64,000 nucleotides of DNA from a virus (IMGVR_UViG_3300035698_016806:1-64000), one strand, 5' to 3'; numbered from the stretch's first letter, positions 9,455 to 41,397 are shown. Notes: generated by a model from the sequence alone, not told the origin. Translations and numbers: made by a program.

Positions 9455-10031
9455 ATTGACTCATAACACAAACTACAGTTGAAATTGTACTTTTGATATT
9501 TCTGCCAGGGAAGCTACTTTGAATTTCAGCTTCAATTTCTTTTCCAGTTTTAAGACCTTTGATCCACGCCTTTACACCAAGATTGACGATACTGGGACCG
9601 GAATCAGCTTTCTTTTTGGCCTTTGTCGCATCTGATTCAGCTTTCTTTTTGGCCTTTGTCGCATCTGATTCAGCTTTCTTTTTGACCTTTGCCGCATCTT
9701 TGGTCGCTTTGTCAGCCGCAGTTTTTGCATCTTTGTCGGCTTTCTTTTTGGATTTGTCAGCCGCTTTGTCAGCGACAGGTTTCTTTTCTGCTTCTCCGCC
9801 TTCATCTTCACCTTCCACAATATAGTTATTGTAAAAGTCAATAACCGCATCGGGCAGATCTTGCGCTTTATCATTTTCAATGAAGTCCAAAACCTTGTTG
9901 GTGAATTCAGTCACAACAACTTCTTTCTTAATACCTACAATTTTGATGGAATCTTCTTCTGCAACTTTCAGCACTTCATTAAGGGCCTTGATTGCTTCTT
10001 TAAATTCTTTTCCAGGGATTACTTTTGCCAT
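9432..10031 (-). CDS. Protein with Lys/Ala-rich, histone-H1-like repeat linker
   Basis: KKKAESDATKA repeats between an acidic N-terminal domain and a short C-terminal domain. Confidence 0.6.
   Translation of the reverse strand: MAKVIPGKEFKEAIKALNEVLKVAEEDSIKIVGIKKEVVVTEFTNKVLDFIENDKAQDLPDAVIDFYNNYIVEGEDEGGEAEKKPVADKAADKSKKKADKDAKTAADKATKDAAKVKKKAESDATKAKKKAESDATKAKKKADSGPSIVNLGVKAWIKGLKTGKEIEAEIQSSFPGRNIKSTISTVVCVMSQYDKEVEA
9604..9699. repeat. 33-bp coding tandem repeat (~2.9 copies)
   Basis: Unit tcagctttctttttggcctttgtcgcatctgat. Confidence 0.9.
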
Positions 10032-10394: not shown

Positions 10395-11048
10395 TTATTG
10401 GTTTACCTGAAAAAACGCTTTTGCAAAACCCTGTGAACATAAAGACCTAAAAGAAGCATCTGAATCTACACTCCCAATAAATTGCTCAAATTCCAGAATA
10501 TTAAAAACCGCAGATTTATGTAGAAACGCCAAGCTTGGTTTTGGTCTTCCAGGTCTAACATACAACAAATCATTCTTTGGGCAATTATCCCACGCTTTAT
10601 AAATTCTGTTTGGGATATTAAAGTCACCCCATAGGCTTGTTTTTTTCGTCCATGGAGAACCGAACCACCAAGGCTGGTATGAATACCTTGGGTTGCCGAG
10701 TTTTTCTTTTAATCGCCCATTGCCTGGATTCTCTATACACCAGAATTTTGGGGAACATTTGTCAATTATCCTCTTGCAATGGTCAACAAGAAACATTCCT
10801 TTATCAAGATCACCAGTTTTATGGAAACCATTTGCAGTGCTAAATTCAGTGCATACAGGGTTGGCTATAATACCATATACATTTTCAGGTGGGTTATAAT
10901 TTTCCACACCAATAGCTTCACCAATACATCTTACATCATACCCAGCCTGTTTATAAACATAAGAATCTGAACCAAGATCAGCACATAGATGTAAAATTAT
11001 TTTTCGTTTTATCTTTCGTTTCCATTTTAGTTTCCGTTTCAGTTTCAT
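10395..11048 (-). CDS. Compact C5 DNA methyltransferase-like protein
   Basis: ILHLCADLGS (motif I-like), ANPVCTEFS (PC-like), IENP (VI-like), FGSPWTKKTSLWG (VIII-like). Confidence 0.7.
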   Translation of the reverse strand: MKLKRKLKWKRKIKRKIILHLCADLGSDSYVYKQAGYDVRCIGEAIGVENYNPPENVYGIIANPVCTEFSTANGFHKTGDLDKGMFLVDHCKRIIDKCSPKFWCIENPGNGRLKEKLGNPRYSYQPWWFGSPWTKKTSLWGDFNIPNRIYKAWDNCPKNDLLYVRPGRPKPSLAFLHKSAVFNILEFEQFIGSVDSDASFRSLCSQGFAKAFFQVNQ

Positions 11049-26188: not shown

Positions 26189-26941
26189 TTATCTTCTGTT
26201 TTCCCCATCTGGTATTATAGAAGCTACACCGGCTTTTGTCCCGTTGACAGCTTTTGTGACGATTGATTCCACCAGATTTTGGATGAAATCCAATTTACCT
26301 GCAATTGCAATGGCGGCGGCAAAGGAAGCGGCATCAGCGGCGTTTTTGATTTTGTCTGATTCCAAGAAAGTATCAGATGCAAGTTTCAAAGAATTGGCAA
26401 TGACAAAATCAGAATACCCATCAATCAGCATCAAGGCTTTGATGTTCTCAGGGATTGTATCTGATTCCTGGATAACAGCTTTGATACCTGTGATTATTGA
26501 TCCACCGTACTGTACTTTGGTTGCAGTGTCTTTGGTAGTTTTTACGATTTCTTTTGCTGATTCTACTATTTTGGTAGTTTTGTCTTTTTTCATGCTTGTT
26601 GCCCCACTGTTTGATTGTTTATTATTTTTTTGGCCCAGCATAATACCACGTATATCAAGATGACGAACTGCTTTTTTTTCCATATCCAAGGAGTATCCTT
26701 GGACTGTAACTTCAGCATCTCGACCATTCGCTAAAACGGCCAATTTATCACCTTTTTCAAGTTTAAAGTTTTTGGTGAAGTAGTGGTATTTTTTGATAGC
26801 TCCTTTGAACTTGACCACAACAACAGCACCTTCGTCATTGTCAAAAAATTCATTAAAATCAGAACAATCTTCAGAACAATCTTCGTCCAGACAATCACGC
26901 AAATCTTTGTAGTTTTCAAAAATTTGATACTTGTTATTCAT
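26189..26941 (-). CDS. Hypothetical protein
   Basis: 250-aa ORF with AAGGAG RBS. Confidence 0.7.
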   Translation of the reverse strand: MNNKYQIFENYKDLRDCLDEDCSEDCSDFNEFFDNDEGAVVVVKFKGAIKKYHYFTKNFKLEKGDKLAVLANGRDAEVTVQGYSLDMEKKAVRHLDIRGIMLGQKNNKQSNSGATSMKKDKTTKIVESAKEIVKTTKDTATKVQYGGSIITGIKAVIQESDTIPENIKALMLIDGYSDFVIANSLKLASDTFLESDKIKNAADAASFAAAIAIAGKLDFIQNLVESIVTKAVNGTKAGVASIIPDGENRR

Positions 26942-27063
26942 TTTTTCTCCTTCTAATTATGGCTTTATTAGCCTGTGAATCACAATTTCATTTAAATTAA
27001 CTTTACATAATATAAATTAATATAGATTAAATAGCAACACTTTCAAACACTTTTTAATTTATA

Positions 27064-27134
27064 TTTTATCAAGTAGACCAGCTATCCGTAGGAGGCAGAT
27101 AATTTTGTTTCTATTGCTGATCTACTTGATAAAA
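27064..27134 (-). ncRNA. Candidate small RNA hairpin exposing an anti-Shine-Dalgarno loop
   Basis: 14-bp perfect outer stem (ttttatcaagtaga/tctacttgataaaa); inner hairpin with a CCUCCUA loop on the minus strand. Confidence 0.4.
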
Positions 27135-27224
27135 CATAAGAAATAAGCGTCTTATGTTTGCTTTTAAGACAGTTTAGAAGTATTTTAGTATCAGTGTATC
27201 ATTTACTTCTAAACTGTCTTTAAA

Positions 27225-27482
27225 TCACCTTTTATCAGTCAATCGTTTAAGGCTTTCTCTGTGGTACGGTAGTCGATAAGTTCTTTTGAAAAATCCCTTT
27301 GGAGGATAGAATGGGGTAGCTGTTAAATCAACAGCTATGTTAGAGTTTGGCGCTTCAGTTAATCCTGAGTAGTTCTTTTCGTCAGGTAAAGTGAAATCAT
27401 TTATACTCAAAATCATAGCAACAATTAGGATAACAAGAAATTTAAGGATGAAAGTCATTATTTTCTTGATCATCTTCAGCAC
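27225..27482 (-). CDS. Small membrane-anchored hypothetical protein
   Basis: N-terminal hydrophobic helix. Confidence 0.5.
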   Translation of the reverse strand: MLKMIKKIMTFILKFLVILIVAMILSINDFTLPDEKNYSGLTEAPNSNIAVDLTATPFYPPKGFFKRTYRLPYHRESLKRLTDKR

Positions 27483-27750
27483 CTTTTATTATTATGGTTC
27501 GTTCCCCGTCAATGATTTTTACATCAGGCAATTGCCCCATTATCAATTCAAAAGAAATTCTTAATTCATTGTATTTTTCTTGAAGAATCGTTTTCTCTTT
27601 CAGGCAGGTTTTTAACGCTATTAAATGATACCCCCCTTCATCCATTCTCTTTCTGCATCTTTTTAGGGTTTCCAGAGCTTCTTGATGTTTGTAATGGAGC
27701 TTCTTGTATCTCTCGAACCATTTATTAGACTTTTCTTTAAAAGGCCACAT
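27442..27750 (-). CDS. Hypothetical coiled-coil protein
   Basis: 102-aa ORF. Confidence 0.55.
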   Translation of the reverse strand: MWPFKEKSNKWFERYKKLHYKHQEALETLKRCRKRMDEGGYHLIALKTCLKEKTILQEKYNELRISFELIMGQLPDVKIIDGERTIIIKGAEDDQENNDFHP

Positions 27751-27934
27751 ACTAATTCCCCCATATTTTTGTTGCCGCGGTACAAATCATACCAGTCATA
27801 ATTATATCAGGAAGCCAGGTAATAAATAAAAAAGCCAGCAATATTTCCTCATTAAATTTGTGACTTGCCCAAATCACTCCCAGCGATATCATTTTATTCC
27901 TTATGTATTAATTATTTACTACATTATTTACTAC

Positions 27935-27963
27935 ATTATAAATTAATAAAAATTAATAGTCAA
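27935..27963 (-). promoter_or_regulatory. sigma70-type promoter
   Basis: TTGACT-17 bp-TATAAT. Confidence 0.7.
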
Positions 27964-28047
27964 CACTTTTTAATCGTGCTAAAATAGTCTGTTTATAATT
28001 TCTCTCCTTTTAAAATATTAATTCCGTTTTGTATTATTTTAATTTTT

Positions 28048-28083
<36 letters not shown>

Positions 28084-28228
28084 TCAATTGTCTTTGCACA
28101 AGGATTTTTTATATACTTTTTTGCTGCTTCTATTGCATTTCTGAAGTTTCACAGGCATGAACAACATCTACCAAAGAATCTTTAATCACGACAACCAACA
28201 ATTGTTCTTTCATTTATTTTCTCCTTTA

Positions 28229-28597
28229 CTAATATCCAAAAACAAGATTAACCAGTTCTGTTGATTCTTTCCAATCTTCTTCATCCCCATCTGAAAATAG
28301 TTCAATTGTATTCGGGGAATGGTGCTTGTATATCAAAAGACAAGCACAAACCAATAAATCATATGGTTTCTGGGCAGTTTTGCAAAACTGGAATCCGAAT
28401 CCATCAGATCCTTTTCTTTCCAAAAGAAATGTTTCATGTCCATCATCACCAAGCCCATTGAAACATATATCATCTAAAAAAGGGTGCGCTTCAATTAGGA
28501 TGCTGGTATTACGTAATACCTTTTTACAATCTTCTACAATTTTTTCCCAAATTTCTTCAGGTACTTCTGTGTGTGGAAAGTAATGTGTATATCCCAT
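28229..28597 (-). CDS. Hypothetical phage protein
   Basis: MGYTHYF...FCKTAQKPYD; RBS. Confidence 0.7.
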   Translation of the reverse strand: MGYTHYFPHTEVPEEIWEKIVEDCKKVLRNTSILIEAHPFLDDICFNGLGDDGHETFLLERKGSDGFGFQFCKTAQKPYDLLVCACLLIYKHHSPNTIELFSDGDEEDWKESTELVNLVFGY

Positions 28598-28620
28598 AAT
28601 ATTATCTCCTTATTTGCTGT

Positions 28621-28947
28621 TTACCGGCTCATTATATAAGCAATTAATGATGTTCCAGTTTCAATTATTTTTGCCACACCTGTCCAATTTCCTTGATCCG
28701 CTTTCCATGTCAAATCAAGATAATCCCCTTTCATTTGGAGATTTGACAGAGCATGGGATATTCCATTACCGCCCAGCAGAAACACCCGGAATTCACCATC
28801 TTCCTTTTGTTTGAATACAAGCCTGTTTTTGTTATCGCACATACAGGACACCAGATCAAACACAACCTCCTTTGCATCTTGTTTGATTGGGCTGAGATCC
28901 GGTTTTATGCCTTTATTTCTATCTTTCCTAAGATCTTCCCATTTCAT
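28621..28947 (-). CDS. Hypothetical protein
   Basis: 108-aa ORF. Confidence 0.6.
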   Translation of the reverse strand: MKWEDLRKDRNKGIKPDLSPIKQDAKEVVFDLVSCMCDNKNRLVFKQKEDGEFRVFLLGGNGISHALSNLQMKGDYLDLTWKADQGNWTGVAKIIETGTSLIAYIMSR

Positions 28948-29228
28948 TATTCTTCCCCCAGTCTCATGTAGATATGTTCCCTTACAATTTCAGGGAGATC
29001 ATCAATGCCTATTTTAGTTCCCAAGTGGTGATTACTACCATTCGGATTAAACGAACATGTTCTAAATTGGCTGAACCCTTGTGGACTATTAGGATCATCA
29101 CTTAATCCCAAAGCATCGTGAAACCTTCTCCCAGATACAGCAGATACGGAAACATCATCAAAAACAACTGTGTATCTATCAAAAGATTCTCCATCATTAT
29201 CAAATACACCTAATATTTTTATAGCCAT
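28947..29228 (-). CDS. Hypothetical phage protein
   Basis: DNDGESFDRYTVVF...PQGFSQ; GGAGG RBS. Confidence 0.65.
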   Translation of the reverse strand: MAIKILGVFDNDGESFDRYTVVFDDVSVSAVSGRRFHDALGLSDDPNSPQGFSQFRTCSFNPNGSNHHLGTKIGIDDLPEIVREHIYMRLGEE

Positions 29229-29653
29229 TTGTTGACCTCCTTCCAGGCAGATACCATCACACATCCCCCGTCTAATGGGTACGTGGTAAATGTTGAATAT
29301 CTAACATTACTGTAATCAAGACCAGATATTTGCACCAAGTTATTCAGCCAGGTTTGTGGAAGGGCTGTATCAAAAGGACAGACAATCCCTATATCTTCTG
29401 CCAGTTTATCTTTCTGAAGATCCATTTCCAGAAGTTCTTCCCATGTATATTCTTTATAATTCATTATGTATTCATTATGTATTCTCCTGTGGGCACGGCA
29501 AGATGCTTTACCCAATTCTATTATTTTATCCAAATTATCAGGATACCAAGAATTTTCAATGGATTCCACGGACATATCATTTATCTTTCCTACATACATA
29601 TCACATTTGCACATAAGAAAGTGAATCAGGATTGCTTTTTCGTGGTCTGTCAT
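29219..29653 (-). CDS. Hypothetical protein
   Basis: 144-aa ORF with RBS. Confidence 0.55.
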   Translation of the reverse strand: MTDHEKAILIHFLMCKCDMYVGKINDMSVESIENSWYPDNLDKIIELGKASCRAHRRIHNEYIMNYKEYTWEELLEMDLQKDKLAEDIGIVCPFDTALPQTWLNNLVQISGLDYSNVRYSTFTTYPLDGGCVMVSAWKEVNKWL

Positions 29654-29656
29654 TAT

Positions 29657-30201
29657 TTACCGTCCTCCTATATTTTCTTTTACCCATTTATGTGCTGGAC
29701 TATTGAGATCACTTTTATCCCAATCAACACACTGCTCTCCAGCTAATCTGGCACAAACAGCATTTCCAAATTCCCTATATTGCCCGAGACTTTTAACTTT
29801 CATATCTACTTTTATCTGTGATATCCATTTATTGCTATTTTATTCCAATAAACTCCTTTAACTCCAGAAATATTATTTTTTGGGTTTCCCCTATTTCTTC
29901 CGTTATACTTAGTATTGGTTTCTCTAAGATTATCAATCCAATTATGGTATCTGACTTGATCTTTATGGTCAATATCCCCTTCAGGCCATTTACCATGAAC
30001 ATAAAGCCAAGCAAGTCTATGTGCTTGATAGGATTTCCCATTTATTTTTATTCTGACATAAGAAAATTGAGTATATTTAAGAATACCACCAATTTTAGAT
30101 CTACTTTTCGGGCGTACTACTTTCCATCTAAATAGTCCTGTAAATGAATTATAAGATAATTGACGATGTAATTCTGCATAGGTAAGTTTGGATTCTTTCA
30201 T
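29657..30201 (-). pseudogene. HNH-AP2 homing endonuclease frameshifted at the start of the AP2 domain
   Basis: AHRLAW...IDHKDQVRYHNWIDNLR; one A is missing at ~29838; the -1 frame continues KWISQI...NAVCARLAGEQC to a stop at 29657. Confidence 0.75.
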
Positions 30202-30322
30202 GATAACCCCCGTTTAAGGTTACGTTATAAGATATGTGGAAGACAAGTAACGTGCTTGCTTTTCGGGTTGCATTCCCTATCCACATAAATAGTATACTAA
30301 ATTATAACGGGGATTACAATAA

Positions 30323-30571
30323 CTATTCTGACTCACATTTACCACATAAATAATCAGGTCCGTAAGCATCGCCAACATAGTTCCCATGAGGGCAGATATC
30401 GCCTGGAGTATTTCTCCATCCCTGTGGGTACTGCTCTTTGAATTCATTTTCACATTCTTGGCACATGAGTCTTTCCCCATTAACTCCAGTAGTTCCACAT
30501 TTGGATTTAATCTCTTTTGTCTGCCATCCAGCGTGAACCCATTGACTTACAAAATTTTTACATCTTGGCAT
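30323..30571 (-). CDS. Cys-rich hypothetical protein
   Basis: YPQGWR...PGDICPHG...CGKCE. Confidence 0.6.
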   Translation of the reverse strand: MPRCKNFVSQWVHAGWQTKEIKSKCGTTGVNGERLMCQECENEFKEQYPQGWRNTPGDICPHGNYVGDAYGPDYLCGKCESE

Positions 30572-30582
30572 TTTCTCTCTCC

Positions 30583-30846
30583 CTAATCAAACATGGTTAA
30601 TTCAGGATCAGAATCTTCACCCCATCTGGCATTTAAATTCTGCTCTATCCAAACGTCAGCGGATTCCTTCATGGACTTCATCATTTTTGGAAGTGATCCG
30701 CCATTATCGGCATAAAGATCTTCCCAATCAGACGAATCACTACACTCAACAATGGAATCATACCCCTTGTTATAATTCTTTTCTGCAAAATCTTTGCATT
30801 GCTGGATAATTTCTTCTTTAGTCATTTCATTCTCCTCTTTTACCAT
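30583..30846 (-). CDS. Hypothetical protein
   Basis: ORF in the early-gene run. Confidence 0.55.
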   Translation of the reverse strand: MVKEENEMTKEEIIQQCKDFAEKNYNKGYDSIVECSDSSDWEDLYADNGGSLPKMMKSMKESADVWIEQNLNARWGEDSDPELTMFD

Positions 30847-31039
30847 AAATCATTTCAGCCCCAAATTTTCTGGCTTCCATTACATCATTATATTCCACTA
30901 TTAATTCATCCCTGTATACTTCAAGATCAGCATAGGACATGGCATCAAGACTTTCAAAGGGTGTATAATTACCATTGATCTTCTCGATTAGCATTTGAAT
31001 GGTAACGATGATGGACATTTTAACTACTGGATTTGTCAT
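30827..31039 (-). CDS. Hypothetical protein
   Basis: ORF with AAGGAG RBS. Confidence 0.55.
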   Translation of the reverse strand: MTNPVVKMSIIVTIQMLIEKINGNYTPFESLDAMSYADLEVYRDELIVEYNDVMEARKFGAEMIYGKRGE

Positions 31040-31111
31040 TTTTATTTTCTCCTTTTAATAGATTAATACCTTAATAGACAGCATCTCCCAATTATGCCGT
31101 CAGTTAAAGAA

Positions 31112-31327
31112 TTATTTCTTAGGTGCTTCTTCTGCCAATTGCAATCCGATTTGAATTCCCTTCAATACCATATATGCTTCACGGGTAGTGATGCCACAAT
31201 TATAACACTCATCTTGTTTGGCATTATCAATGGCATAGGCATCGTTTCTATGACAGACATGGACAATTTTGTTTGGTGTGTTCAGAGTCTTGGTTAAACG
31301 CTCAACCATTTTTTGATTAATTCTCAT
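31112..31327 (-). CDS. Hypothetical protein
   Basis: ORF with GGAGG RBS. Confidence 0.55.
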   Translation of the reverse strand: MRINQKMVERLTKTLNTPNKIVHVCHRNDAYAIDNAKQDECYNCGITTREAYMVLKGIQIGLQLAEEAPKK

Positions 31328-31336
31328 TTTGACCTC

Positions 31337-31615
31337 CTAATACAGTTGGCTTGCATTAAGTTGGCAATACAAAGGACGAGTCCAACCACTTCCTTTAACA
31401 GATATCCACAATTTCCCATATCCGTTACATAATAGACAAGGTGCATCATCACCATGTATTGCGCCCATCCCTTTGCAGTTTGGGCATTTTCCCTGCTTTG
31501 CTTTTTCTGCCTTTTCCTTGGATTTATTATACACCATTACCATATTATTTGACCTCCTATGTATTCCAAACATTAATAGTATGCCCAACTTCTCTGTTTT
31601 CGTATTCCCATCCAA
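31337..31615 (-). CDS. CxxCxGxG zinc-finger protein (true start probably ~31543)
   Basis: CPNCKGMG...CLLCNGYG. Confidence 0.55.
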   Translation of the reverse strand: MDGNTKTEKLGILLMFGIHRRSNNMVMVYNKSKEKAEKAKQGKCPNCKGMGAIHGDDAPCLLCNGYGKLWISVKGSGWTRPLYCQLNASQLY

Positions 31616-31847
31616 TTATGTTGGTTCCTGCACCGGATTGTATTTTTTTCTTTAGGGTAAATTTAACCTTGCGATTTGTCCATTGAGATACAATACCAAG
31701 TTTATCGAATACTTTTCCTGGTGGAATACCCAAGGTGCTGGCATCCTGGGAAAACGATTTCTTTTTCTTATCAAACAGAAATTGGTCGGTATTGAATACG
31801 TTTTTGCCATTATAGAATTTCATGATCTCACAGCCCCGTTTATCCAT
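31557..31847 (-). CDS. Hypothetical protein
   Basis: ORF in the early-gene run. Confidence 0.5.
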   Translation of the reverse strand: MDKRGCEIMKFYNGKNVFNTDQFLFDKKKKSFSQDASTLGIPPGKVFDKLGIVSQWTNRKVKFTLKKKIQSGAGTNIIGWEYENREVGHTINVWNT

Positions 31848-32065
31848 AATCCGATACCAATAAATATTCCAGCATACATGATACAGTTTCCAAAATGAAC
31901 AAGAGAATCACCAAGCACGATTATAGATTGCCCTAATATATCAATATTCATTTTAATTCTCCTTCAATTGTCGGATCTCTTCCTGAATTGCCATTATAAC
32001 CCATTCTCGTTCTTCAGTTTCAAGAACAGTTTCCAACGCCTTCAAGTGATCTCGTTTTCTTCTGC

Positions 32066-32476
32066 TCATGTTTTCATCTCCTTTCCATGGGCAGGTTTGC
32101 CCCAAGGTCTCAGAGTACCTTTCCAGAAATGGTTTGAATTGAACAGATTGCCTTCCCGTATATATTTGGGCATTTGCTCCCATTTACTTACATAAACCAC
32201 CCTTCCAGCCCTGTTGGTGTAGAAGTGTTTCCACTCCACCAATTCGGTTTGGATCTGATTAAACAAAGTATCAGAAATTCCAGAGATTTCCCCCTTGTAA
32301 TAAGATGACAATCTTTTATAGGAATTGGTTTCATAAACCTTGGTAGATTTATTGGCTACAAATTCATTGCAGGACATTTCAAATAGTCTGGCATGTCGAT
32401 AGGAATCCAGCAACATAGCTTTGGATATCTGGAAGTGATTGTATTGGGTTGTTGCCCATTTTGATGATGGCATCAT
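32066..32476 (-). CDS. Hypothetical protein
   Basis: 136-aa ORF; RBS ACCGTAGGAGG. Confidence 0.65.
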   Translation of the reverse strand: MMPSSKWATTQYNHFQISKAMLLDSYRHARLFEMSCNEFVANKSTKVYETNSYKRLSSYYKGEISGISDTLFNQIQTELVEWKHFYTNRAGRVVYVSKWEQMPKYIREGNLFNSNHFWKGTLRPWGKPAHGKEMKT

Positions 32477-32510
32477 AACCTCCTACGGTTTTATAAAAAT
32501 TATCTGTAAA

Positions 32511-32539
32511 ATTGTATTACAAAAGTATCAATATGTCAA
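32511..32539 (-). promoter_or_regulatory. sigma70-type promoter
   Basis: TTGACA-17 bp-TACAAT. Confidence 0.7.
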
Positions 32540-32632
32540 AAATACACGCTTTAATTCTTTGTTTAAGACTGTTTTGACAATTAAACACAGTATCGTATCA
32601 AAACAAGCTTAAATGAGCTTAAATGAGTTATT

Positions 32633-32926
32633 TTAAAATTTACCAGAACAGATCTCATCTAATGCCCGCAAGACCAGCAATTTGAAATCTTTTGCCTTGA
32701 TTTCATAATATTCTGCTCCTGCTTCTCCACCATCACTAAGCAGGCAATTCCAAACAAAACCTTCCCAATCAGGTTGGGGCTGGATAAGAATCAATGCCTT
32801 TGTTTCATCCAAGATTTTTTTCCAATCCACTTTCTTTTCCTGTACTTCAATTAATATGACCCTATTGTATGGGTCATTATGGAGCGAACATGCTCCTTTT
32901 TCTAAGGTATTCCAATAGTCTTCCAT
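32633..32926 (-). CDS. Hypothetical protein
   Basis: ORF with AAGGAGG RBS. Confidence 0.6.
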   Translation of the reverse strand: MEDYWNTLEKGACSLHNDPYNRVILIEVQEKKVDWKKILDETKALILIQPQPDWEGFVWNCLLSDGGEAGAEYYEIKAKDFKLLVLRALDEICSGKF

Positions 32927-33306
32927 GATAAACCTCCTTTTGTGGTTAATTGCAATTAAGACCTAATTAAGACCTTATGTGGGAACACTTCCCATAATGT
33001 TCCCTGATAATGAATTAATTATAGTTTATTTAATATTTTTATCGGGATATCAATTTTATTAACTTTTACAGGTTCAGGGTACCATTCTTTTGTGGATTTC
33101 TGAACCGCTTTCCCTGCTGTACTTCCATCATATCCGGTATGAATAGATGCGTAAAAACTTCCATTTTCAATTGTTTTGTGATCCTACCGTATGCCACAAA
33201 ATCTCTACCCTCTTGTTTAATGTAATCACCGATTTCCATTTTGAATCTCCGTTTTTCTGTGTTTGTAAAAGGAGTTTCCTACGGTGTAGGAAACCCCATC
33301 CCTTTC

Positions 33307-34218
33307 CTATGCTGCAATCAGGAGCTTGTCAAATATATTCGACACTTTGATACCGTTTTCAATTTTGACAGACTCCGTGGAATCCGAATCTGTGATCCGT
33401 TGGGTGAATGAGTTGTAGAAGTCCCACCCGGTCAAAGCGTTGGCATCAATCAGGGCTTTTACTGATTTGTTTTCACCCCTTAATGGAGTATTCAGGAGTT
33501 CATCCTGTACCCGTGGCCCAATTTCAAGTTGTTGGAAGATCGTGTCAATATCAGGAGCCTTCAGGCTTTTCTGGGCATATTGTGACCACAGCCCTACTGA
33601 TTCAATATCATTTTCAATGGATTCAATATATTTCTGGACTTCCGCATCCAGATCCAGAGATCCTTTATGCAATTTCCGGGTATTGAGAGCTGTAAATCTG
33701 TTATCTGGACGCATCATACCGTTGGAGCATACAAGTCTCCACAAGGCTGAATTGATCAGCAATCTTACCGTGGCATCGGCAGAATTTTTTATGAAAGTTC
33801 TTGGGTATACATCATCCCCAGGTTTGATTGTAATGGGTTTATTGCTCTTGAAATATGCAACACAATTTCCACCATCATGGGAAGTGTGGATGTCAATGTT
33901 CCCCAGTTCATACAATTCAGGAAGGCTATCAAACAGCTTCCAGACGGCTTCGTTGTGCTGGACAACCTGATATTGTTTGGATACAGTCTTCAGTCCTTCA
34001 ACCCTTCCATCCGGGTGTAATGCAATATTGAACATTCCACTTGCCTGAAAAAGCCCATCTTCATCCTGTCCGAATTTTTCCAAAATTGAAGTATCCACAT
34101 CACCAAAGTCAAACAAAGGGCGGCCCTGAATTATTGTAGGCACCTTGTCAAGCCCAGTAACCTTTACATTCAATTTGTCTGCTTTTTCCATTATCTGTTC
34201 GTTAATAATGTTTTCCAT
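33307..34218 (-). CDS. DUF932-like phage/plasmid early protein
   Basis: VSKQYQVVQHNEA...NSADAT...WRLVCSNGMM...H. Confidence 0.7.
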   Translation of the reverse strand: MENIINEQIMEKADKLNVKVTGLDKVPTIIQGRPLFDFGDVDTSILEKFGQDEDGLFQASGMFNIALHPDGRVEGLKTVSKQYQVVQHNEAVWKLFDSLPELYELGNIDIHTSHDGGNCVAYFKSNKPITIKPGDDVYPRTFIKNSADATVRLLINSALWRLVCSNGMMRPDNRFTALNTRKLHKGSLDLDAEVQKYIESIENDIESVGLWSQYAQKSLKAPDIDTIFQQLEIGPRVQDELLNTPLRGENKSVKALIDANALTGWDFYNSFTQRITDSDSTESVKIENGIKVSNIFDKLLIAA

Positions 34219-34291
34219 GTCGTACCTCCTACGGTATTAAATGATTGTATGATTAGGTTTCCTACACCGTAGGAAACCTGTTTAGTAATTG

Positions 34292-34813
34292 TTATTCGGC
34301 TTCATTCAAAATTGCCCAGACTTTTTTGCAATACCAGATTGAACCTGCATCCCCGGACGGGATATCTCCCTTGGAACCACTATTTAACCAATCACAATAC
34401 CTTGCAATTGTACCCTCTTTTTTCCGGGAATTTCCATCAAGCGCATTTATAACACATCCGATTGAAGACACGAAAGATTTTGCTGATCCTTTGAATCCAT
34501 TTTGGAGTAGTTCATCAACAATTTCTTTTCTGTCAGTCCCAGCCGTAATTTGTGCTATAACAAGGCTGAATGGTCTTTCAATTTTTGTTCCTGAAGCCTT
34601 TTTAGTTTTGGCTTTCGGCACAGGGGCAGTTTTTACCATGCAGATTGCCCCAACATTCGGTTGGGATTTTTTGCAAGCAACACATTTTTCTGCTTCTGCA
34701 ACATGGCTTCCAACACATTTTTTCACAGTGGTAGCTGTTACCAATTTTCCATCAATTTCTGCCTGAATGGACACCTTTGCCCGAGCGTTTGTTTTCTTGA
34801 TCACTTTTGCCAT
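34292..34813 (-). CDS. Hypothetical basic protein
   Basis: ORF with GGGAG RBS. Confidence 0.65.
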   Translation of the reverse strand: MAKVIKKTNARAKVSIQAEIDGKLVTATTVKKCVGSHVAEAEKCVACKKSQPNVGAICMVKTAPVPKAKTKKASGTKIERPFSLVIAQITAGTDRKEIVDELLQNGFKGSAKSFVSSIGCVINALDGNSRKKEGTIARYCDWLNSGSKGDIPSGDAGSIWYCKKVWAILNEAE

Positions 34814-34906
34814 TTTTAAATCTCCCTGTTTGTGGGTTAAGGTTGCACACGCCGTGTGCAACCATATTATTCAATTCAGTTTCCTACGGTGTAGTAAACC
34901 CCTTTT

Positions 34907-35602
34907 CTATGCGGCATCCCCTATTGCAAAATTCAAAGGTGCCGATTTTCCAGCCGCTTTCCCAGCATCCCATGTCTTTTTATCTGATGGCATGTCTGTT
35001 TTTGATCTTCTCCCAGCCCTTAAATTGGGATACATCTCTTCCATTGCCTCCTGAATCTCTTTTTCTTTCACGACAACCAAGGCAGTACACCCTTCTTGTG
35101 CATGGATAGTTTCATCCATTTGAGATTTCAATTCCCATGCCCTTTCCCAGATAATGGAAGCCGCCACATTTCCGAATTGATTCCGTTTTCCACTATAGGT
35201 TTTCTGGGGGAAGAATTTCCATGCCTCTTTTTCGATATGTGCCGTGACAACATCAATGAAGTACAAGGTTGTCTCCACATCACTGAAAGTCCCAATAACC
35301 TCCCATTCTGTGTAGTCATAGAATTTTCTGAATATCACTTTAGTATCAAAGGTGGCACAAAATGTGCTGACCACGCTGGATACCCATTGTGGACGTTTTG
35401 TCCCATCCTTGTAAAATTTGAAAGTATCTGCAATGAAGTTATCCGTTTCCAGATCCACTTCAGTTTCTTGGATACGGTATTTTGCCATAAGCATTGCCGC
35501 ATGGCGTTTGAAGGTATCCCCTTCTGGAGTCCCTTCTTGATCTTTCGCTTGACAAAGAATTTTACTGATTTTGTCGATGATTTTCTGCTTGTCCTCATTC
35601 AT
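34907..35602 (-). CDS. DUF2786-like protein
   Basis: KIIDKISKIL...TPEGDTFKRHAAMLMAKYRI; C-terminal AGKAAG. Confidence 0.7.
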   Translation of the reverse strand: MNEDKQKIIDKISKILCQAKDQEGTPEGDTFKRHAAMLMAKYRIQETEVDLETDNFIADTFKFYKDGTKRPQWVSSVVSTFCATFDTKVIFRKFYDYTEWEVIGTFSDVETTLYFIDVVTAHIEKEAWKFFPQKTYSGKRNQFGNVAASIIWERAWELKSQMDETIHAQEGCTALVVVKEKEIQEAMEEMYPNLRAGRRSKTDMPSDKKTWDAGKAAGKSAPLNFAIGDAA

Positions 35603-36076
35603 TTAAAACCTCCTACGGTTTGTTTTGAAATTAACTTCATGTTAGGTTTCATGTTAGGTTCATGTTAGGTTTACTACGGTGTAGGAAACCCTTTTAAATC
35701 CCATTTTGCTTGCACCAGATTTTTTCAATATTCATAGTTCCATAGGTATTGAATTCATACATCAATCCCCTTCCATTTACATACCAATTCCATTCTTTTT
35801 CAGGATAGGAGTGATTTCCTAACTCGAAATTGTCTTCAGACAGCCATGATATCCACATATAGAACATTTTAACCCCCTTTTATTTGAATTTCACCCTTCA
35901 TCATTTTTCCGGGCTTAGGACCGGCTTTGGCTGATTTAATGAGGGGGAATTCCACCCCCTTTTTTTCTAAAGTCAATTATAGCCCATTTTTCTTAACAGG
36001 GCGCATTTTTGATCCTCCTTTTATGTCTTCCAATTTTAGCGTGAATATCTCAGTTCCTAATATCACCCCCTTTTAT

Positions 36077-36373
36077 TTAGAAATAATATACCCGGCTCCG
36101 GTCCGTATCTACAAACCTATCCGCATATTTTTCCAAAACATGACCCTTTTTATCCGTGTTCATCCCAACAGAAATTCCATCCCTGCTTTTTGCCATTTGA
36201 AGGTGATCCAAATATCCAAGTCCATTATAGTTTCCAGTTTCCATCAATACATATTCCAAAAGCATACTTTGGGCAGTTCTTTGATCAATCAATTTATCCT
36301 GCGAATTTAGATTATAATCATTGACCTTTTTCCGCAGATCTTCAACCTTAAATGTTTTTCGACTTTTAGCCAT
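36077..36373 (-). CDS. Hypothetical phage protein
   Basis: RKTFKVEDL...LLEYVLMETGNYNG; RBS. Confidence 0.65.
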   Translation of the reverse strand: MAKSRKTFKVEDLRKKVNDYNLNSQDKLIDQRTAQSMLLEYVLMETGNYNGLGYLDHLQMAKSRDGISVGMNTDKKGHVLEKYADRFVDTDRSRVYYF

Positions 36374-37506
36374 TTTTCGACTCCCTTTTATTTCGGTTTA
36401 CTACGGTGTAGGAAACCCATTTTATATTGTAGTTATAAATGCTTTTTTGATCTTAATCCGGTGAAATATTAGACGCCAGGAATACTTCACCGAACTCCAT
36501 GGATCTAAATCCTGAGATTCCTGAGTTTCAATAACCCTGTAATGATACCATTTCATTTTAACCCCCTTTTATTTAGTAACAAATCCACATTTTAATTTGA
36601 ATCGCAAGATATTTCGCACAAAAATTATAGAACCCCAGATCCTGATACAACAGGTTCATTCTTGATTCTTCCACATAGATTGCACCCATTGTTGCAAGCA
36701 TGATCACAAAACAACACAATACAAAATATTTACACATTTTTTTCTCCCTTTCCCGTTTCAGTTTCCTACACCGCAGGAAACCCATTTTTAACCCAATTTT
36801 AAAAACTTATGTCAAAGGGGATTTTTTCCTATTAATCCCCCTTCCCATAAATCTTTAATCATTTTGCCTTCTGGGGATATTTATCCATCAAAGCAATCCC
36901 TAATTCCATTTCTTCCTCCACGGATAACTCAATTTCTTTGAACTCTTCCTCCAATATCTCAATTACAGTCATTTCAACCCCCTTTTATTTCAATATGATC
37001 CATCTTTCAAATCCATGTTTACTACACCGTAGGAAACCCATTTTCTATTTTACGTTTTTGTAGGACCTTTCCGAGAAAAGCCCACTTTTCACCTCTTCAA
37101 TATCAACGGATACCAATTCTAAATCTACTGGTTCTCCATACAATTTCATAGTATATTTTTTGAACCCCTTGTTTGCCTTTTCTGAAGCTGAATCTTCTCC
37201 CTTTGCAGGATAGATAAAAGTACTGATAATACCACGCCCTGAAGGATCAACCCATTTTATTGATATACTGTAATTTTTCTCCCTTTCCCTTTTCAGTCCT
37301 ACCCCGTAGGAAACCCAAATTAATTCTTAATTTAAATTAATTTTTTTTAATCTACCTATCCGATTGAATTTTTCCTGTTTTCTCGGATATTTCTAGTATA
37401 TAAAAGTTTTTCTATCGATCCGAAAAACCTTTATATAATAAGGCAATATCAAAAACGTATCCTTGCTATTGCCTTATATCCTTAAACTCCCGTATCAAGC
37501 TAATTT

Positions 37507-38112
37507 TTAGCCTTCTGTAGTTACTTCCGGCAACATATAACCCTTAATTCTTTTCGCAATCTCTAGCGGATCGCAATGTTTTCCTGCTCGCTCCAATGCT
37601 ACGACCAAAGCCTTTAAGATTTTTTCAGGGTCTGCTATAACTTCTTCATCTTCTTTACCTATCGCCAAAATTGCCTTTAAAATTCTTTGCGGATTAATTG
37701 ACAAACACCCGGTCCCTGAAAATTTTTCAACTACAACTGAACTATCAATATCAATCTCGAATAATTTCATACTCGCCGACACATCATTTTTTGACAAATT
37801 TAAATCTTTTAAGGCTTCAGTTCTTAACAAAGCACCTTGTTTTTGTGAATAATTCTTTTTAAAGTAAATCCCGATTTCTCCTACACTATGAAAAGCTTTA
37901 CACGTTGCAAGACTTGCTATTTTTCTGCCTTCCTTAATGAAAGTAAAACTATCAGTAAATTCTACTTTTGATTCAATAAAATTTTTAACCGTCAATTCTA
38001 TATCAAGATCCTTGACATCTTTCTTTGCAGTAGTTGTTACAACGTCGGCAATAGTCGAATCAGTCGAATCAGTTGAATCGGTTTTGTTTTCATTCTTGTT
38101 TGTAGTTGTCAT
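37507..38112 (-). CDS. Hypothetical protein, first gene of the leftward early region
   Basis: 201-aa ORF with AAGGGG RBS. Confidence 0.7.
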   Translation of the reverse strand: MTTTNKNENKTDSTDSTDSTIADVVTTTAKKDVKDLDIELTVKNFIESKVEFTDSFTFIKEGRKIASLATCKAFHSVGEIGIYFKKNYSQKQGALLRTEALKDLNLSKNDVSASMKLFEIDIDSSVVVEKFSGTGCLSINPQRILKAILAIGKEDEEVIADPEKILKALVVALERAGKHCDPLEIAKRIKGYMLPEVTTEG

Positions 38113-38305
38113 GTTTAGATCCCCTTAAATTAATGAATTAAAAAAGATTAAATAAGATTAAATAAGATTAAATAAGATTAAAAAAGATTAAAAATTAAAT
38201 TGTGCTTCCTACGTTATAGGAAACTCGTTTGTTTTCGCTTTATGAAAAAACTATTTTGTTTTCGCTTTATGAAAAAACTATTTTGTTTATGATTTTACCG
38301 TTTTT

Positions 38306-38361
38306 TCAAGGTTTCCCGTCAATCTTTTTTAATACTATTTTGATTGACGGGAAACCTTGAA
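38306..38361. terminator. Long perfect inverted repeat (20-bp arms)
   Basis: ttcaaggtttcccgtcaatc ... gattgacgggaaaccttgaa. Confidence 0.5.
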
Positions 38362-39909
38362 ACAAGACCGGACAAAATAAAATCCGGTCTTGATCAAATT
38401 AAAAAAATTAAACAATAAGACCCGGCTTTATTATTACTGGGTCTTATATGCTATGCTATCCCGTACCAACTACGTAAAAGGTTTTTTAATAGTTTTTATT
38501 GCCTTTACTTGTTTAAATTGTTTTTGGTGTCATCCTATAATTGGTGGTTTGTGGTTTGTGTTTTTTTGGTCCTTAATAACGGTTAAATTGTTTAGCTCCG
38601 CTTGAAAAGTTGTTTTATGATATCCAAATCCTATTTATTTGGAATGTGAAAAGTTTGGGCTTATTATTTTGCGAATCAGGTTTTGGTTGCTAACCGCCCG
38701 GTCACCGCCTTTAACTTTTTATTTTTTAGGGGATGTTATAAACTGTATCATTATAAAGTTTATAAGTAGGTATCCTGTTTGGTTAACTCAGACCCACCCA
38801 ACAATTATGTAAAAGATCAGCTTGACTATCCCGCCCCCTCTTGCCTTGCTCCTCTTGCTGCCCCTCTCACCTGCCGTCAGGTGAAACTACTATACGCTAA
38901 TAAAAAACATAACACAACCCCTTGAAATCATTGAACAATATGGCATATACCGCTTGTAAGCTATTGATATCATTGAATAATTTTTACCTATAAAAAAAAT
39001 TCATCTATGCAAAAAAAGATATGTAATAAAATCAGATACTTACAAGATAAATGGAAAAATAATTAGTTTAAAAGTATTTACTAATAAAAAAACATAATAA
39101 AATCAGATAGTTATACAATTAATTTATTTTAATTTATTTTAATTTATGTTTAAAATCGGTTTTTGTATGATTTAAGGCCGATTTAAACCGGTATATATAT
39201 GATAGTACTCGAATAGATCAAAACCGGCTTAAATAGGCTAAATACAGCGTTTTACGCCTATTTTGTCGTCTCTTATAACGTACACGGGCGCAGGCCCGGT
39301 CTATTAATTTTTTGACGGGCGCAGCGTAGAATAATCAATACAAGAATGGAGCAAGAATGGAACAAGAATGGAACAAGAATGATAAAATATGAATAGCGAT
39401 TCCATTAAATGAATATGATTCATTGACTAAATCGGATTTAGTAAATTGAATTCATTTGTAGAATACCGCTCGATAACATGGCCCGGATCAAACCCGGATT
39501 TACTGAATTGAATTTAGCGAATAAATCAGGTTCAATTGTATACAAAAAACTGCCGTGTAACATACTGATATTATAGGGAAAACTTGACCTATTAAGATTT
39601 GAGTTTTATACATAGGGCAGGCCCGGTCCTTGTCATACGTCTCTTAAATAGGCAAATAACACGTTTAAACACGTTTAAACACGATATAACATTTATTACA
39701 CAATTTTAATCTAAATTAATTTATGCCGGAAAAATATCAGAAATAAGAAATTATTCATCCACTGAATCAGATTCATTATATATCACCACGATATTAAATG
39801 AATATGACGCAATATTTGACTATTGTTTAATGTGAATATACAATATAATTATAATATATAAAATGAATCTGATTCATTTAATGAATATCGGGTCTGATTT
39901 AAACATTAA

Positions 39910-40040
39910 CTGAATTGTATTCATTCGCTGAATCAGATTCATCCACTGAATCAGATTCATCCACTGAATTGTATTCATTCGCTGAATCAGATTCATCCAC
40001 TGAATCAGATTCATCCACTGAATCAGATTCATCCACTGAA
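39910..40040. repeat. Seven tandem 18-bp units with palindromic core TGAATC-A-GATTCA
   Basis: Order B A A B A A A (A=ctgaatcagattcatcca, B=ctgaattgtattcattcg). Confidence 0.92.
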
Positions 40041-40278
40041 GCCCCTTTATTTTATGAAGCCGGGGCCTACTTCTCCATCACGTTGAAAAATTTCAGATAT
40101 CTGTATTAACAGGTATTGCCAGTAGTATTATCTCCACGTTGAAAAATTTAAAATCCTTGTATTACCAGTAATTATCTCCAACATATATAAAATACAATAT
40201 AAAATCCAATATAAAATCCAATATAAAATCCAATATAAAATCCATTTTCCTCTTGTATTATTTTTATACATTTTACTC

Positions 40279-40307
40279 TTGACAACCCTTTATTAATGCT
40301 TTATCAT
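40279..40307 (+). promoter_or_regulatory. sigma70-type promoter for the rightward operon
   Basis: TTGACA-17 bp-TATCAT. Confidence 0.6.
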
Positions 40308-40314
40308 CAACTCC

Positions 40315-40647
40315 ATGAAAACAATCACCAAAAAAGAACCTACAAATAATACCTTGAATACCCAAAGGGGTCCCTTGAACAACAGTATGAGAATTTCTAT
40401 CAGGATTTCTTCAGTAGTAACTTCTTTATCTATTAAAAAGAATTTAATCGCTATATGGATTTTGCTTATGAACACGGACCCGAAGGATAGCAAGGATGAT
40501 TTAACTGATTTCGTTTATACTTGTTTAGATAAATGGGATAAAGATACTGCCAAAGGGTTAAGTGATTTTGTTTCAGAGAAATTAATTCAAGATATGCTTG
40601 AGGCTGAAGATTATATTGAATACAAGAAAATTCTTGAGGGGTTATAA
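40315..40647 (+). CDS. Hypothetical protein
   Basis: First plus-strand ORF; start uncertain. Confidence 0.5.
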   Translation: MKTITKKEPTNNTLNTQRGPLNNSMRISIRISSVVTSLSIKKNLIAIWILLMNTDPKDSKDDLTDFVYTCLDKWDKDTAKGLSDFVSEKLIQDMLEAEDYIEYKKILEGL

Positions 40648-40656
40648 GGATTAGCT

Positions 40657-41397
40657 ATGAGGAAACTAAAAAGAAAACCAGTAGGTAAACCAACATCACC
40701 AATATCAGATCCAATAACTGAACGTAAAATATTACATGCTGAGAAAGCTGAAACCAAGTCTAAATCCAAGCCAGAATCCAAACATAAGTCCATACACAAA
40801 ACATTAAAGAAGGTTACTTCTAAAGCTCCTCTTAGGACAATCAGAAGATATAAAAAGCAAAAGTGTAATTTTGTTACTATAGATATTGATACCAAAGAGC
40901 CAAAGCAATGTAATTTCTTTGCTGTAGGAAAAGGAACATTATGTAAAAAGCATGGTGGAGATCCTGTTATAAAAGAAAACTTAATTTCAATTAAGGATGA
41001 GACATTATTACCAATGCATTTATCCAAGTTTAATCCAGCAGTACATCCACTGCAATATATTAATTTAAGTAGAGAGGGAATGTCAAAAGTAGAGATTGCA
41101 GCTTCAATGGAAATCTCTGTCCAAGTATTGAAAAGCTGGGCAGAAAGATTTGAATCCTTTAATACTGCAAGTGAGATAGGAGATGCATTACACGAATCCT
41201 GGTGGATACAGAGAGGAAAGGGTGGGTTAGATTCAAGGAATTTCAATACTTCTTTGTTTAAATTCTTGACCAGTAACAAATTAGGTTATTCTGATAAAAT
41301 GGAAACAAAGAATACCAACATGAATATGCATGGTGTTTTATTAATACCTGATGCTGTTACCGAAGATGAATGGGAAAAGGATGCCATAGATGTCTGA
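40657..41397 (+). CDS. Putative terminase small subunit
   Basis: CKKHGG motif, HTH-like EGMSKVEIAASMEISVQVLKSW, upstream of TerL. Confidence 0.7.
   Translation: MRKLKRKPVGKPTSPISDPITERKILHAEKAETKSKSKPESKHKSIHKTLKKVTSKAPLRTIRRYKKQKCNFVTIDIDTKEPKQCNFFAVGKGTLCKKHGGDPVIKENLISIKDETLLPMHLSKFNPAVHPLQYINLSREGMSKVEIAASMEISVQVLKSWAERFESFNTASEIGDALHESWWIQRGKGGLDSRNFNTSLFKFLTSNKLGYSDKMETKNTNMNMHGVLLIPDAVTEDEWEKDAIDV

Follow-up and report, generated by a model that had tools for sequence, protein, structure and literature searches.

What is the purpose of a palindrome that recurs nine times within 5 kb of a phage genome and nowhere else in it? The element in question, two arms around a 3-bp core spanning 21 bp, lies at positions 33274 to 38224 of IMGVR_UViG_3300035698_016806:1-64000, a 64,000-nucleotide stretch of viral DNA to which we refer as the window. 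An original prediction, made from this stretch alone, had proposed that the copies delimit cassettes of early genes and had offered three explanations for them, namely integron-like recombination sites, RNA-processing or stabilizing hairpins, and operators for a dimeric regulator. We tentatively favor a form of the second explanation, in which the palindromes would be cis-acting intercistronic RNA hairpins that also serve as passive patches of homology, resembling the PeSL linkers of T4-type phages minus their promoter.

A 102,562-bp phage contig (C25), the longest of a 3.0-Mb metagenome bin of 34% GC, supplies the window as its first 64 kb; the phage is uncultured, and several salt-lake metagenomes contain the stretch. 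C25 is a lytic siphophage unrelated to T4. Its plus strand from ~40.6 kb encodes the large terminase, the portal, the major head protein, the tape measure and a 2974-amino acid J-type tail protein, and on the minus strand, genes below 38.1 kb specify a family-B DNA polymerase, a clamp, helicases and many small proteins. The two arms diverge from a repeat-filled, 2.5-kb non-coding hub at 38.1 to 40.6 kb. With the palindrome array occupying the first 5 kb of the leftward arm and its genes on the minus strand, the label "early genes" is a fair one. For the same reason, a position "after a stop codon" must be read on the minus strand, as we do below for copies P1 to P9 and genes A to K, which are numbered leftward (Table 1).

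Searching for GTTTCCTAC-N3-GTAGGAAAC with up to two mismatches, we obtained eight matches, compared to none in 100 dinucleotide shuffles. The matches are exact at 33274 and 34257, carry one mismatch at 34879, 35669, 36396, 36761 and 37017, and carry two at 38204. A ninth copy, at 37294-37314, is genuine but degenerate, with a 6-bp stem and the plus-strand core CCC. All nine fall within 33274-38224, and no further copy was found in the 102,562-bp contig or the 3.0-Mb bin. The palindrome is therefore not a host element of the repetitive extragenic palindromic (REP) type scattered genome-wide, a possibility that had been raised along with the prediction, whose count and positions were accurate. 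So was its assignment of the core, which reads GGT on the plus strand at 33274, 34879, 35669 and 36396 and ACC at 34257, 36761 and 37017; at 38204 it reads GTT. On the sense strand, this corresponds to ACC loops in four copies, GGU in three, and GGG and AAC in one each.

The copies are placed in a highly regular manner. One stands ahead of each cassette (A, B, C, D+E, F..G, H, I, J and K), always 12-91 nt upstream of the next start, and none follows K. The claim that most copies sit 5-15 nt after a stop codon was correct for six of them, located 4-14 nt past the stops of B, E, G, H, I and J, and incorrect for P1, P2 and P4, which are not beside a stop; the latter two lie 192 and 77 nt after one, with other hairpins in between. 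Given that a random 21-mer in the region is wholly non-coding at 17.7% of positions, finding nine of nine in non-coding DNA has a chance of ~2e-7. Beyond the palindrome itself, flanks are shared pairwise, by P2 and P4 (sense CTGAAA.GGGAAAGGGAGAAAAA, as had been seen for the copies at 37294 and 36761), whose downstream linker is common to both, and on the upstream side among P3, P4 and P5. A C.U or A.G mismatch at pair 5/17 is present in four copies and combines freely with either core orientation.

Outside this phage, the array has little company. The exact palindrome has no match in IMG/VR, and blastn of the array region against phage records returned none either. A degenerate version of the motif occurs in at least 119 stretches of metagenome contigs, none with more than one site among those retrieved, and in 37 stretches of 596 Gb of genomes, where by our own arithmetic ~35 would be expected; nearly all of these are single-site. 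An exception is given by contigs of Prevotellaceae metagenome-assembled genomes (L141 560-760, L162 55-200, L144 and L136), which carry tandem arrays of a 42-bp unit consisting of the arms GTTTCCTAC-N3-GTAGGAAAC followed by GCCCTTTTT, with variable loops. These arrays are probably unrelated and terminator-like, and the shared arms may be a coincidence.

The two strands of the palindromes differ to some extent in their pairing. Sense-strand folds of the nine copies range from -4.4 to -14.8 kcal/mol. All three transitions in the stems (two in P1, one in P4) create a G.U pair in the sense RNA and an A.C mismatch on the other strand. Compared with 2-nt flanks included, the sense fold is more stable than the antisense fold by 2.0 to 5.2 kcal/mol in P1, P4, P7 and P9; for the remaining five, the difference is no more than 0.1 kcal/mol, such that the sense strand is never appreciably weaker. 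This G.U asymmetry, resting on few events, favors a role in the sense RNA.

Neither a terminator nor a promoter accounts for such a role. Behind P2 to P8 there is no sense U-tract, whereas the bin's own terminators have classical ones, and P9 is the only internal copy followed by even a short U run; efficient intrinsic termination is thus unlikely. A consensus scan detected no sigma-70 promoter-like site at P2 to P9. We also considered a TTGACA before P4, and rejected it as a promoter: its spacer would be 19-20 nt, and a natural variant deletes part of that spacer. With stems of 6-11 bp, the copies fall short of the approximately two helical turns of an RNase III site. An Rfam cmscan of 26500-41000 (E up to 1) reported nothing at any of the nine copies, and a hammerhead reading of the hairpin flanks was ruled out by eye and by Rfam. 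Mimicry of a CRISPR repeat, suggested by motif ends of the form GTTT...AAAC, was dropped as well, the bin having no CRISPR array for comparison.

A different module is found at the F/G junction of the window, where a GGGGG..CCCCC hairpin runs directly into a twister-P1-like ribozyme. The match (52.7 bits, E 1.5e-9) covers model positions 1-68 of 68; what keeps it under the gathering score of 67.2 is a 5-nt loop in place of the ribozyme's optional P3 stem. The conserved core and the paired ribozyme helices P1, P2 and P4 are all present, and cleavage is predicted from the sequence. It is the only twister in the 3-Mb bin. Self-cleavage here would leave the upstream product with the hairpin at its 3′ end. 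Self-cleaving ribozymes located near phage genes have been proposed to process polycistronic transcripts, a role that for twisters is proposed rather than established (PMC6765202).

We found two relatives of this phage, both as IMG/VR contigs (L005/L006 and L181), in which orthologues of H are 69-74% and those of J 49-57% identical. The palindrome is absent from both (49-74% amino acid identity). What their junctions carry instead is other structured RNA. L005 has three twister-P1-like ribozymes, after I′, B′ and J′ (9588-9642, 10973-11026 and 12377-12430), two of them directly preceded by a GGGGG..CCCCC hairpin, as well as a conserved A-rich linker, AAAACTGAAAAAAGGGGGT, at several junctions. 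In L181, GGGGGTTG-GAAA-CAACCCCC hairpins stand 7-14 nt past the stops of B″, H″ and J″. Across the four twisters, 4/10 pairs show compensatory changes, which fall in ribozyme helices P1 and P2, and 97.5% of cells are paired under the twister fold, compared to 27-69% in slid controls. With hairpins or twisters at equivalent junctions of the relatives and a hairpin plus twister in the window, RNA processing of the early operon appears to be a built-in feature of the clade, with the hairpin on the 3′ side of the upstream product belonging to the conserved module. The palindrome, at eight other junctions, would then take the same slot as the hairpin-twister module. These junction modules, together with the sense-only G.U pairs, make the processing or stabilizing hairpin the best supported of the three options first put forward.

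Both hairpin types occur together at the C-D junction, where P4 is preceded by a GGGGG..CCCC hairpin with UUU behind it (36815-36845, minus strand), ~20 nt past the gene C stop.

The same relatives inform on the mobility of the genes. The order A-B-C-D-E-F-G-H-I-J of the window becomes I-B-H-D-y-J-F-L in L181 and I-y-H-B-..-J in L005, and since the shared small genes are differently ordered in three phages, the region is indeed made up of shuffled cassettes. Gene content differs as well as order, every gene keeps one orientation, and the D+E and F..G intervals do not travel as units. In a comparison of relatives, which had been suggested as a check for breakpoints at the palindrome, order and content do differ, but the relatives shuffle equally without a palindrome. 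For this latter reason, exchange seems to proceed by homologous recombination at any linker that happens to be there.

For a glimpse at natural variation, we placed contigs of four salt-lake runs on positions 30000-41000; these are assembled contigs, not reads. At the C/D junction of run X2, the allele that replaces P4 and its linker resembles P5: its core is flipped to ACC, its arm is the C.U variant and its ribosome-site linker is a different one. The upstream side has also lost 11 nt. This junction was reconstructed from two joints of one contig, of equal depth (4.24). Provided that the reconstruction holds, junctions trade hairpin-linker modules in nature, and at any one site it makes no difference which way the core is oriented. 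The loop itself is neutral, in that both ACC and GGU occur whichever arm variant is present, and in this natural variant the former takes the place of the latter. Upstream of gene C, contigs of three runs leave the reference at a point 16 nt from P3 and continue with sequence resembling the ACTGAAAAAGG linker of the relatives. An independent JGI metagenome contig of the same phage (L057, 99.4% identical), the only related locus among the metagenome loci retrieved, has P9 intact. Two additional joints (36440>37635 and 38161>39704) were disregarded, with 21 matching letters on one side and AT-rich repeats. Mosaic boundaries are also seen outside the array, with contigs leaving the reference at 30803-30840 in 4/4 runs and at 39080 in three.

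How might such an element work? In the reading that we tentatively favor, the nine palindromes would be transcribed within a single leftward early polycistronic RNA, forming stem-loops of 9-11 bp with a 3-nt loop at the head of every cassette, where they may serve as insulators or stability elements. A host or phage nuclease would make an endonucleolytic cut in the adjoining A/U-rich single-stranded linker, and this cleavage would stand in for the ribozyme used at other junctions. The hairpin would then serve as a cap, on the message before it (at its 3′ end), on the message after it (at its 5′ end) or on the two alike, giving each cassette RNA a separate lifetime. At the DNA level, the ~25-45 nt of hairpin and linker, present as nine direct repeats in 5 kb, would provide passive homology patches. 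Copies could convert each other, the 3-nt core could flip through exchange inside the palindrome, and cassettes could be gained, lost and re-ordered at the copies with no need for a dedicated recombinase. We infer, then, that the RNA form is active, that cleavage occurs beside the hairpins and that recombination at them is driven by homology.

Several observations weigh against this reading. The G.U argument comprises three substitutions, whose estimated probability by chance is ~0.005-0.1 depending on the assumed transition bias. Four copies (P3, P5, P6 and P7) have a C.U or A.G mismatch in mid-stem which brings their folds to -4.4 to -7.9 kcal/mol, and selection for RNA pairing alone would not be expected to retain it. 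The arms are conserved in sequence without any compensatory change, a pattern that suits a sequence-reading factor or very recent spread equally well. RNase III requires a longer helix than these stems of 9-11 bp, which is why we leave the cleaving nuclease unnamed. Because P1, P2 and P4 are not beside a stop, protection of 3′ ends cannot be the whole story. Lastly, the population evidence consists of assembled contigs, reconstructed from two joints of one contig.

Could the palindromes instead be read as double-stranded DNA? They would then be sites for a dimeric phage protein that occupies the copy near the early promoter as well as every junction and, as a roadblock, switches off early transcription or sets its pace, comparable to mycobacteriophage stoperators in a symmetric version. 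The identity of the arms is as one would expect for such sites, and so is the 3-bp core in both orientations, which suits a symmetric dimer. The sole recurrent variant, a C to A change at position 5 in one arm of four sites, is one that a dimer could tolerate. A very similar motif, made of 7-bp arms around a 3-bp core that occurs either way round, is known from Cluster O mycobacteriophages (PMC4351075), and the palindrome and the ORFan gene A are both lineage-specific. In addition, an 18-bp inverted repeat at 38307-38359 (minus strand; CAAGGTTTCCCGTCAATC / GATTGACGGGAAACCTTG, 17-nt spacer) lies over the -35 element of the leftward early promoter, and both of its arms contain GGTTTCC, the heptamer of the hairpin arm; this pair makes up two of only seven non-hairpin occurrences of the heptamer in 64 kb. 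At the promoter, however, the two heptamers are ~33 bp apart, as opposed to 7 bp in the hairpin, so that one dimer geometry cannot fit both. In P1 and P4, the positions altered within the half-site are not the same, but pairing on the sense strand survives every one of the changes. The relatives' junctions carry other hairpins or ribozymes, not other palindromic operators, and the operator-like palindromes that are conserved in the clade belong to a different family, TGAAT-N3-ATTCA, located in the hub. Among the early proteins that were tested, no DNA-binding domain was detected. Taking both sides together, we consider the operator option unlikely, and less likely than the hairpin. Rfam matches to a microRNA and to CopA at 38307-38359 merely reflect the hairpin of the 18-bp inverted repeat.

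A different kind of rival denies the palindrome any cis-regulatory role. It would be a recently amplified linker, spread between junctions by gene conversion or template switching, tolerated because it does no harm in the spacers between genes, and a substrate of recombination only. Its absence from both relatives implies that it expanded recently, and the pairwise shared flanks (P2/P4 and P3/P4/P5), the swap of a whole hairpin-linker allele at one natural junction, the ACTGAAAAAGG linker found 16 nt from P3 in three runs and the fact that half of the copies are weakened by mismatches would all be accommodated. Less easily explained are the regular placement, in which each of nine cassettes is preceded by a single copy, the first gene by one in its 5′ leader, and the rest of the 102 kb has none, and the bias of G.U pairs toward the sense strand. 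Moreover, the structured RNA in the same slot of the relatives suggests that the slot needs something. We consider a functionless linker unlikely, to about the same degree as the operator.

A further idea is that the phage clade divides its early polycistronic RNA into messages the size of a cassette by means of junction modules that can stand in for one another. The hairpin-twister module would serve at some junctions, and in the lineage of the window the palindromic hairpin would have replaced it eight-fold, as the recognition signal of a sequence-specific endoribonuclease or RNA-binding protein, making it a protein-dependent, Cas6-like site of mRNA processing. A lineage-specific early ORFan such as gene A could encode this factor, and the factor, rather than recent spread, could be what keeps the copies identical. 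We regard this as quite unlikely.

The early promoters of phage N4 are hairpins with a short stem and a 3-nt loop. By analogy, each copy here could be a DNA-extruded promoter of the type used by the N4 virion RNA polymerase, or a priming signal, for its cassette. The geometry is N4-like, every copy is 12-91 nt upstream of a gene and the region is probably the first to be expressed. Yet four copies have an ACC loop and three a GGU loop, with P4 polymorphic, which is incompatible with base-specific recognition of a loop on one strand. A T7-like RNA polymerase domain was not seen in the 2974-amino acid tail protein, which has tail domains only, and a search of the bin for PF00940 was negative as well, weakly so, as control genomes gave no signal either. 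We consider such promoters very unlikely. Much the same low standing applies to the proposal that the hairpins terminate antisense (plus-strand) transcription across the early genes. Five or six copies are followed by CC(A/C)TTTT on the plus strand, one of them caught by a terminator scan, and the GGGGG hairpins of the window and of L181 also precede an antisense T run. Such T runs, however, would arise on the antisense strand regardless, given a sense strand that is rich in A throughout and an A run that takes in the stop codon. Upstream there is neither a promoter nor a gene on the plus strand, and the plus-strand stems are the weaker ones.

Finally, site-specific recombination, in which a dedicated recombinase would cut the asymmetric core, is the least credible explanation and close to negligible: the core in both orientations, the cassettes delimited by sites, their shuffled order among relatives and the natural junction polymorphism can all be cited for it, but C25 lacks a tyrosine or serine recombinase and any RecT, ERF or Sak4-type protein, the 21-bp element has no attC architecture, relatives free of the palindrome shuffle equally, all genes keep one orientation with no cassette inversion seen, and a flip of the 3-nt core in a perfect palindrome needs only an exchange of arms. 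The profile searches behind this statement (Phage_integrase, Resolvase, RecT, ERF and AAA_24, the Sak4-type family) had all of their matches in the bin on other contigs, including 13 for Phage_integrase with none on C25. The earlier observation that no recombinase is visible in the window thus extends to the entire 102.5-kb contig. Of the integron-like idea, the cassettes survive, as seen from their re-ordering in relatives and the junction allele, and site-specific recombination is not supported, there being no recombinase and no attC.

Compared with known systems, the array comes nearest to the PeSLs of T4-type phages (Arbiol et al. 2010, PMC2839356; Comeau et al. 2014, PMC4122927). In those phages, repeated stem-loop linkers mediate modular shuffling, with crossovers inside the loop (PMC2839356). 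The similarities are extensive: stem-loop linkers between small, mostly ORFan early genes of a hyperplastic region, linkers that are specific to a lineage, gene gain, loss and re-ordering between relatives, and no dedicated recombinase known. Exchange at PeSLs has been mapped within the stem-loop (PMC2839356), and here we see the allele swap at P4 and the divergence 16 nt from P3. However, PeSL units have a strong sigma-70-type early promoter and a tested terminator, whereas the palindrome has neither a promoter nor a U-tract, and it is a near-perfect 21-bp palindrome of one fixed sequence in a siphophage.

The repeat TGTTCGG-N3-CCGAACA of Cluster O mycobacteriophages (17 bp; Cresawn et al. 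2015, PMC4351075) likewise combines invariant arms with a 3-bp core that occurs either way round, is present in many copies between the genes of a leftward operon, and is a descriptive class without a known mechanism. In contrast to the nine copies described here, all non-coding, within 5 kb and one per cassette, it has more than 30 copies genome-wide, a third of them within genes and untied to stops or starts. Twister ribozymes share the intergenic slot once in the window and three times in L005; unlike them, the palindrome matches no Rfam ribozyme family and is too small for the known ones.

Intercistronic processing or stabilizing hairpins are familiar from the RNase III sites R0.3-R1.3 of phage T7 and from bacterial REP elements. 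Here, too, hairpins lie between early cistrons of a polycistronic RNA and could provide a protective stem at message ends. RNase III sites, though, are irregular helices of ~20 bp as opposed to 9-11 bp, and REPs are found host-wide whereas the palindrome is absent from the bin outside the phage. Integron attC sites resemble the copies as palindromes that bound promoterless cassettes of single orientation. They differ in length (57-141 bp versus 21 bp), in their R″/L″/L′/R′ boxes and in the accompanying integrase, neither of which is found here, and the ends GTTTCCT/AGGAAAC do not suit GTTRRRY/RYYYAAC; each cassette in the phage, moreover, comes with a ribosome-binding site of its own and is no more than a section of an operon. 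The array alone is a further instance of a pattern already described for PeSLs and Cluster O repeats. Its particular form is that of a junction hairpin which is strictly palindromic, lacks a promoter and can trade places with ribozyme modules.

Table 1. Coordinates of the palindrome copies, other junction elements, early genes and promoter region in the window
Feature	Position	Strand	Remarks
Leftward early promoter region	38280..38360	-	-35 TTGACG inside 18-bp inverted repeat
P1	38204..38224	-	in gene A 5′ leader, 91 nt before ATG; two changes, both G.U in sense RNA
Gene A	38112-37507	-	ORFan, first early gene
P2	37294..37314	-	degenerate, 6-bp stem, sense loop GGG; 192 nt after A stop, just upstream of B
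Gene B	37281-37045	-	no canonical start, 78 aa
P3	37017..37037	-	sense loop GGU, C.U at pair 5/17; 7 nt after B stop, 44 nt before C
Gene C	36972-36859	-	
P4	36761..36781	-	sense loop GGU, one G.U pair; 23 nt before D
Gene D	36737-36573	-	
Gene E	36556-36422	-	
P5	36396..36416	-	sense loop ACC, C.U mismatch; 5 nt after E stop, 22 nt before F
Gene F	36373-36077	-	
Hairpin-twister junction module, F/G	35891..35961	-	GGGGG..CCCCC hairpin 35941-35961, directly followed by twister-P1-like 35891-35942
Gene G	35867-35694	-	
P6	35669..35689	-	sense loop ACC, C.U mismatch; 4 nt after G stop, 66 nt before H
Gene H	35602-34907	-	DUF2786/DUF7168
P7	34879..34899	-	sense loop ACC, A.G mismatch; 7 nt after H stop, 65 nt before I
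Unique GC-rich hairpin	34841..34863	-	10-bp stem, 3-nt loop, GGTTGCACAC-GGC-GTGTGCAACC; 15 nt downstream of P7
Gene I	34813-34292	-	
P8	34257..34277	-	perfect, 11-bp stem including flanks, loop GGU; 14 nt after I stop, 38 nt before J
Gene J	34218-33307	-	DUF932
P9	33274..33294	-	perfect, sense loop ACC; 12 nt after J stop, 34 nt before K
Gene K	33239-33066	-	

The models of genes A to K were checked against orthologues in the relatives. For the small hub and early proteins, Pfam and PHROGs named nothing useful, and 203 genomes searched with a profile of protein H, with the host order in view, yielded no relative. Gene A has no homologue among 5.8 billion proteins and no informative Atlas neighbor, and its AlphaFold model is unusable, with a predicted local distance difference test (pLDDT) score of 39.5. 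Gene B is 62% identical to its L181 orthologue over an 84-residue stop-to-stop frame and 35% identical to that of L005 over 77 residues. Within 37045-37326 (minus strand), it has no ATG, GTG or TTG where the orthologues begin, and no stop interrupts its frame across hairpin P2. The gene may use a non-canonical start or be in decay, or an A run may have been misassembled.

Translation signals of the early genes show a connection to the palindrome of their own. The same Shine-Dalgarno sequence, ACCGTAGGAGG, precedes genes H (35609-35618), J (34225-34234) and M (32479-32488), all on the minus strand, and it also precedes the orthologues in L181 (9984, 11393 and 17072). As L181 has no palindrome, this Shine-Dalgarno sequence must be the older of the two. 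It has 9 nt in common with the loop and 3′ arm of ACC-type hairpins, and the palindrome may have arisen from such a leader. Its exact complement is found at 27086-27095 on the plus strand, within a hairpin loop of the sense transcript. Pairing of the 5′ arm and GGU loop with the Shine-Dalgarno sequence ACCGUAGGAGG of gene J is possible on paper and is not the predicted fold.

The surroundings of the array are rich in other repeats. The 5′ leader of gene A contains a phased AT-rich repeat of 10-11 bp (38137-38194, 5.8 copies), and 2.5 copies of a 27-bp unit are found at 38221-38288, upstream of P1. In the hub, 39400-40040 is dense with TGAAT-N3-ATTCA palindromes, among which an 18-bp unit is present in 6.8 copies at 39919-40040, and the family is conserved in the hub of L181 (6660-6975 and 7659-7675). 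This set likely represents operators or iterons for a conserved DNA-binding protein, or a replication origin. Farther away, 30218-30287 on the minus strand matches the int-alpA RNA of Rfam (39.9 bits versus a gathering score of 35.8, E 2e-5).

The early regions of lytic phages are where host-takeover and anti-defense genes turn over fastest, and how such genes are exchanged without wrecking their expression is only partly understood. The locus described here is a compact natural example, with the same small genes reordered in three related phages and three RNA modules, the palindromic hairpin, a G-rich hairpin and a hairpin plus twister, in the slot between them. It makes testable both the purpose of bacterial and phage twisters and the question of whether repeated intergenic hairpins are RNA insulators, protein sites or recombination linkers.

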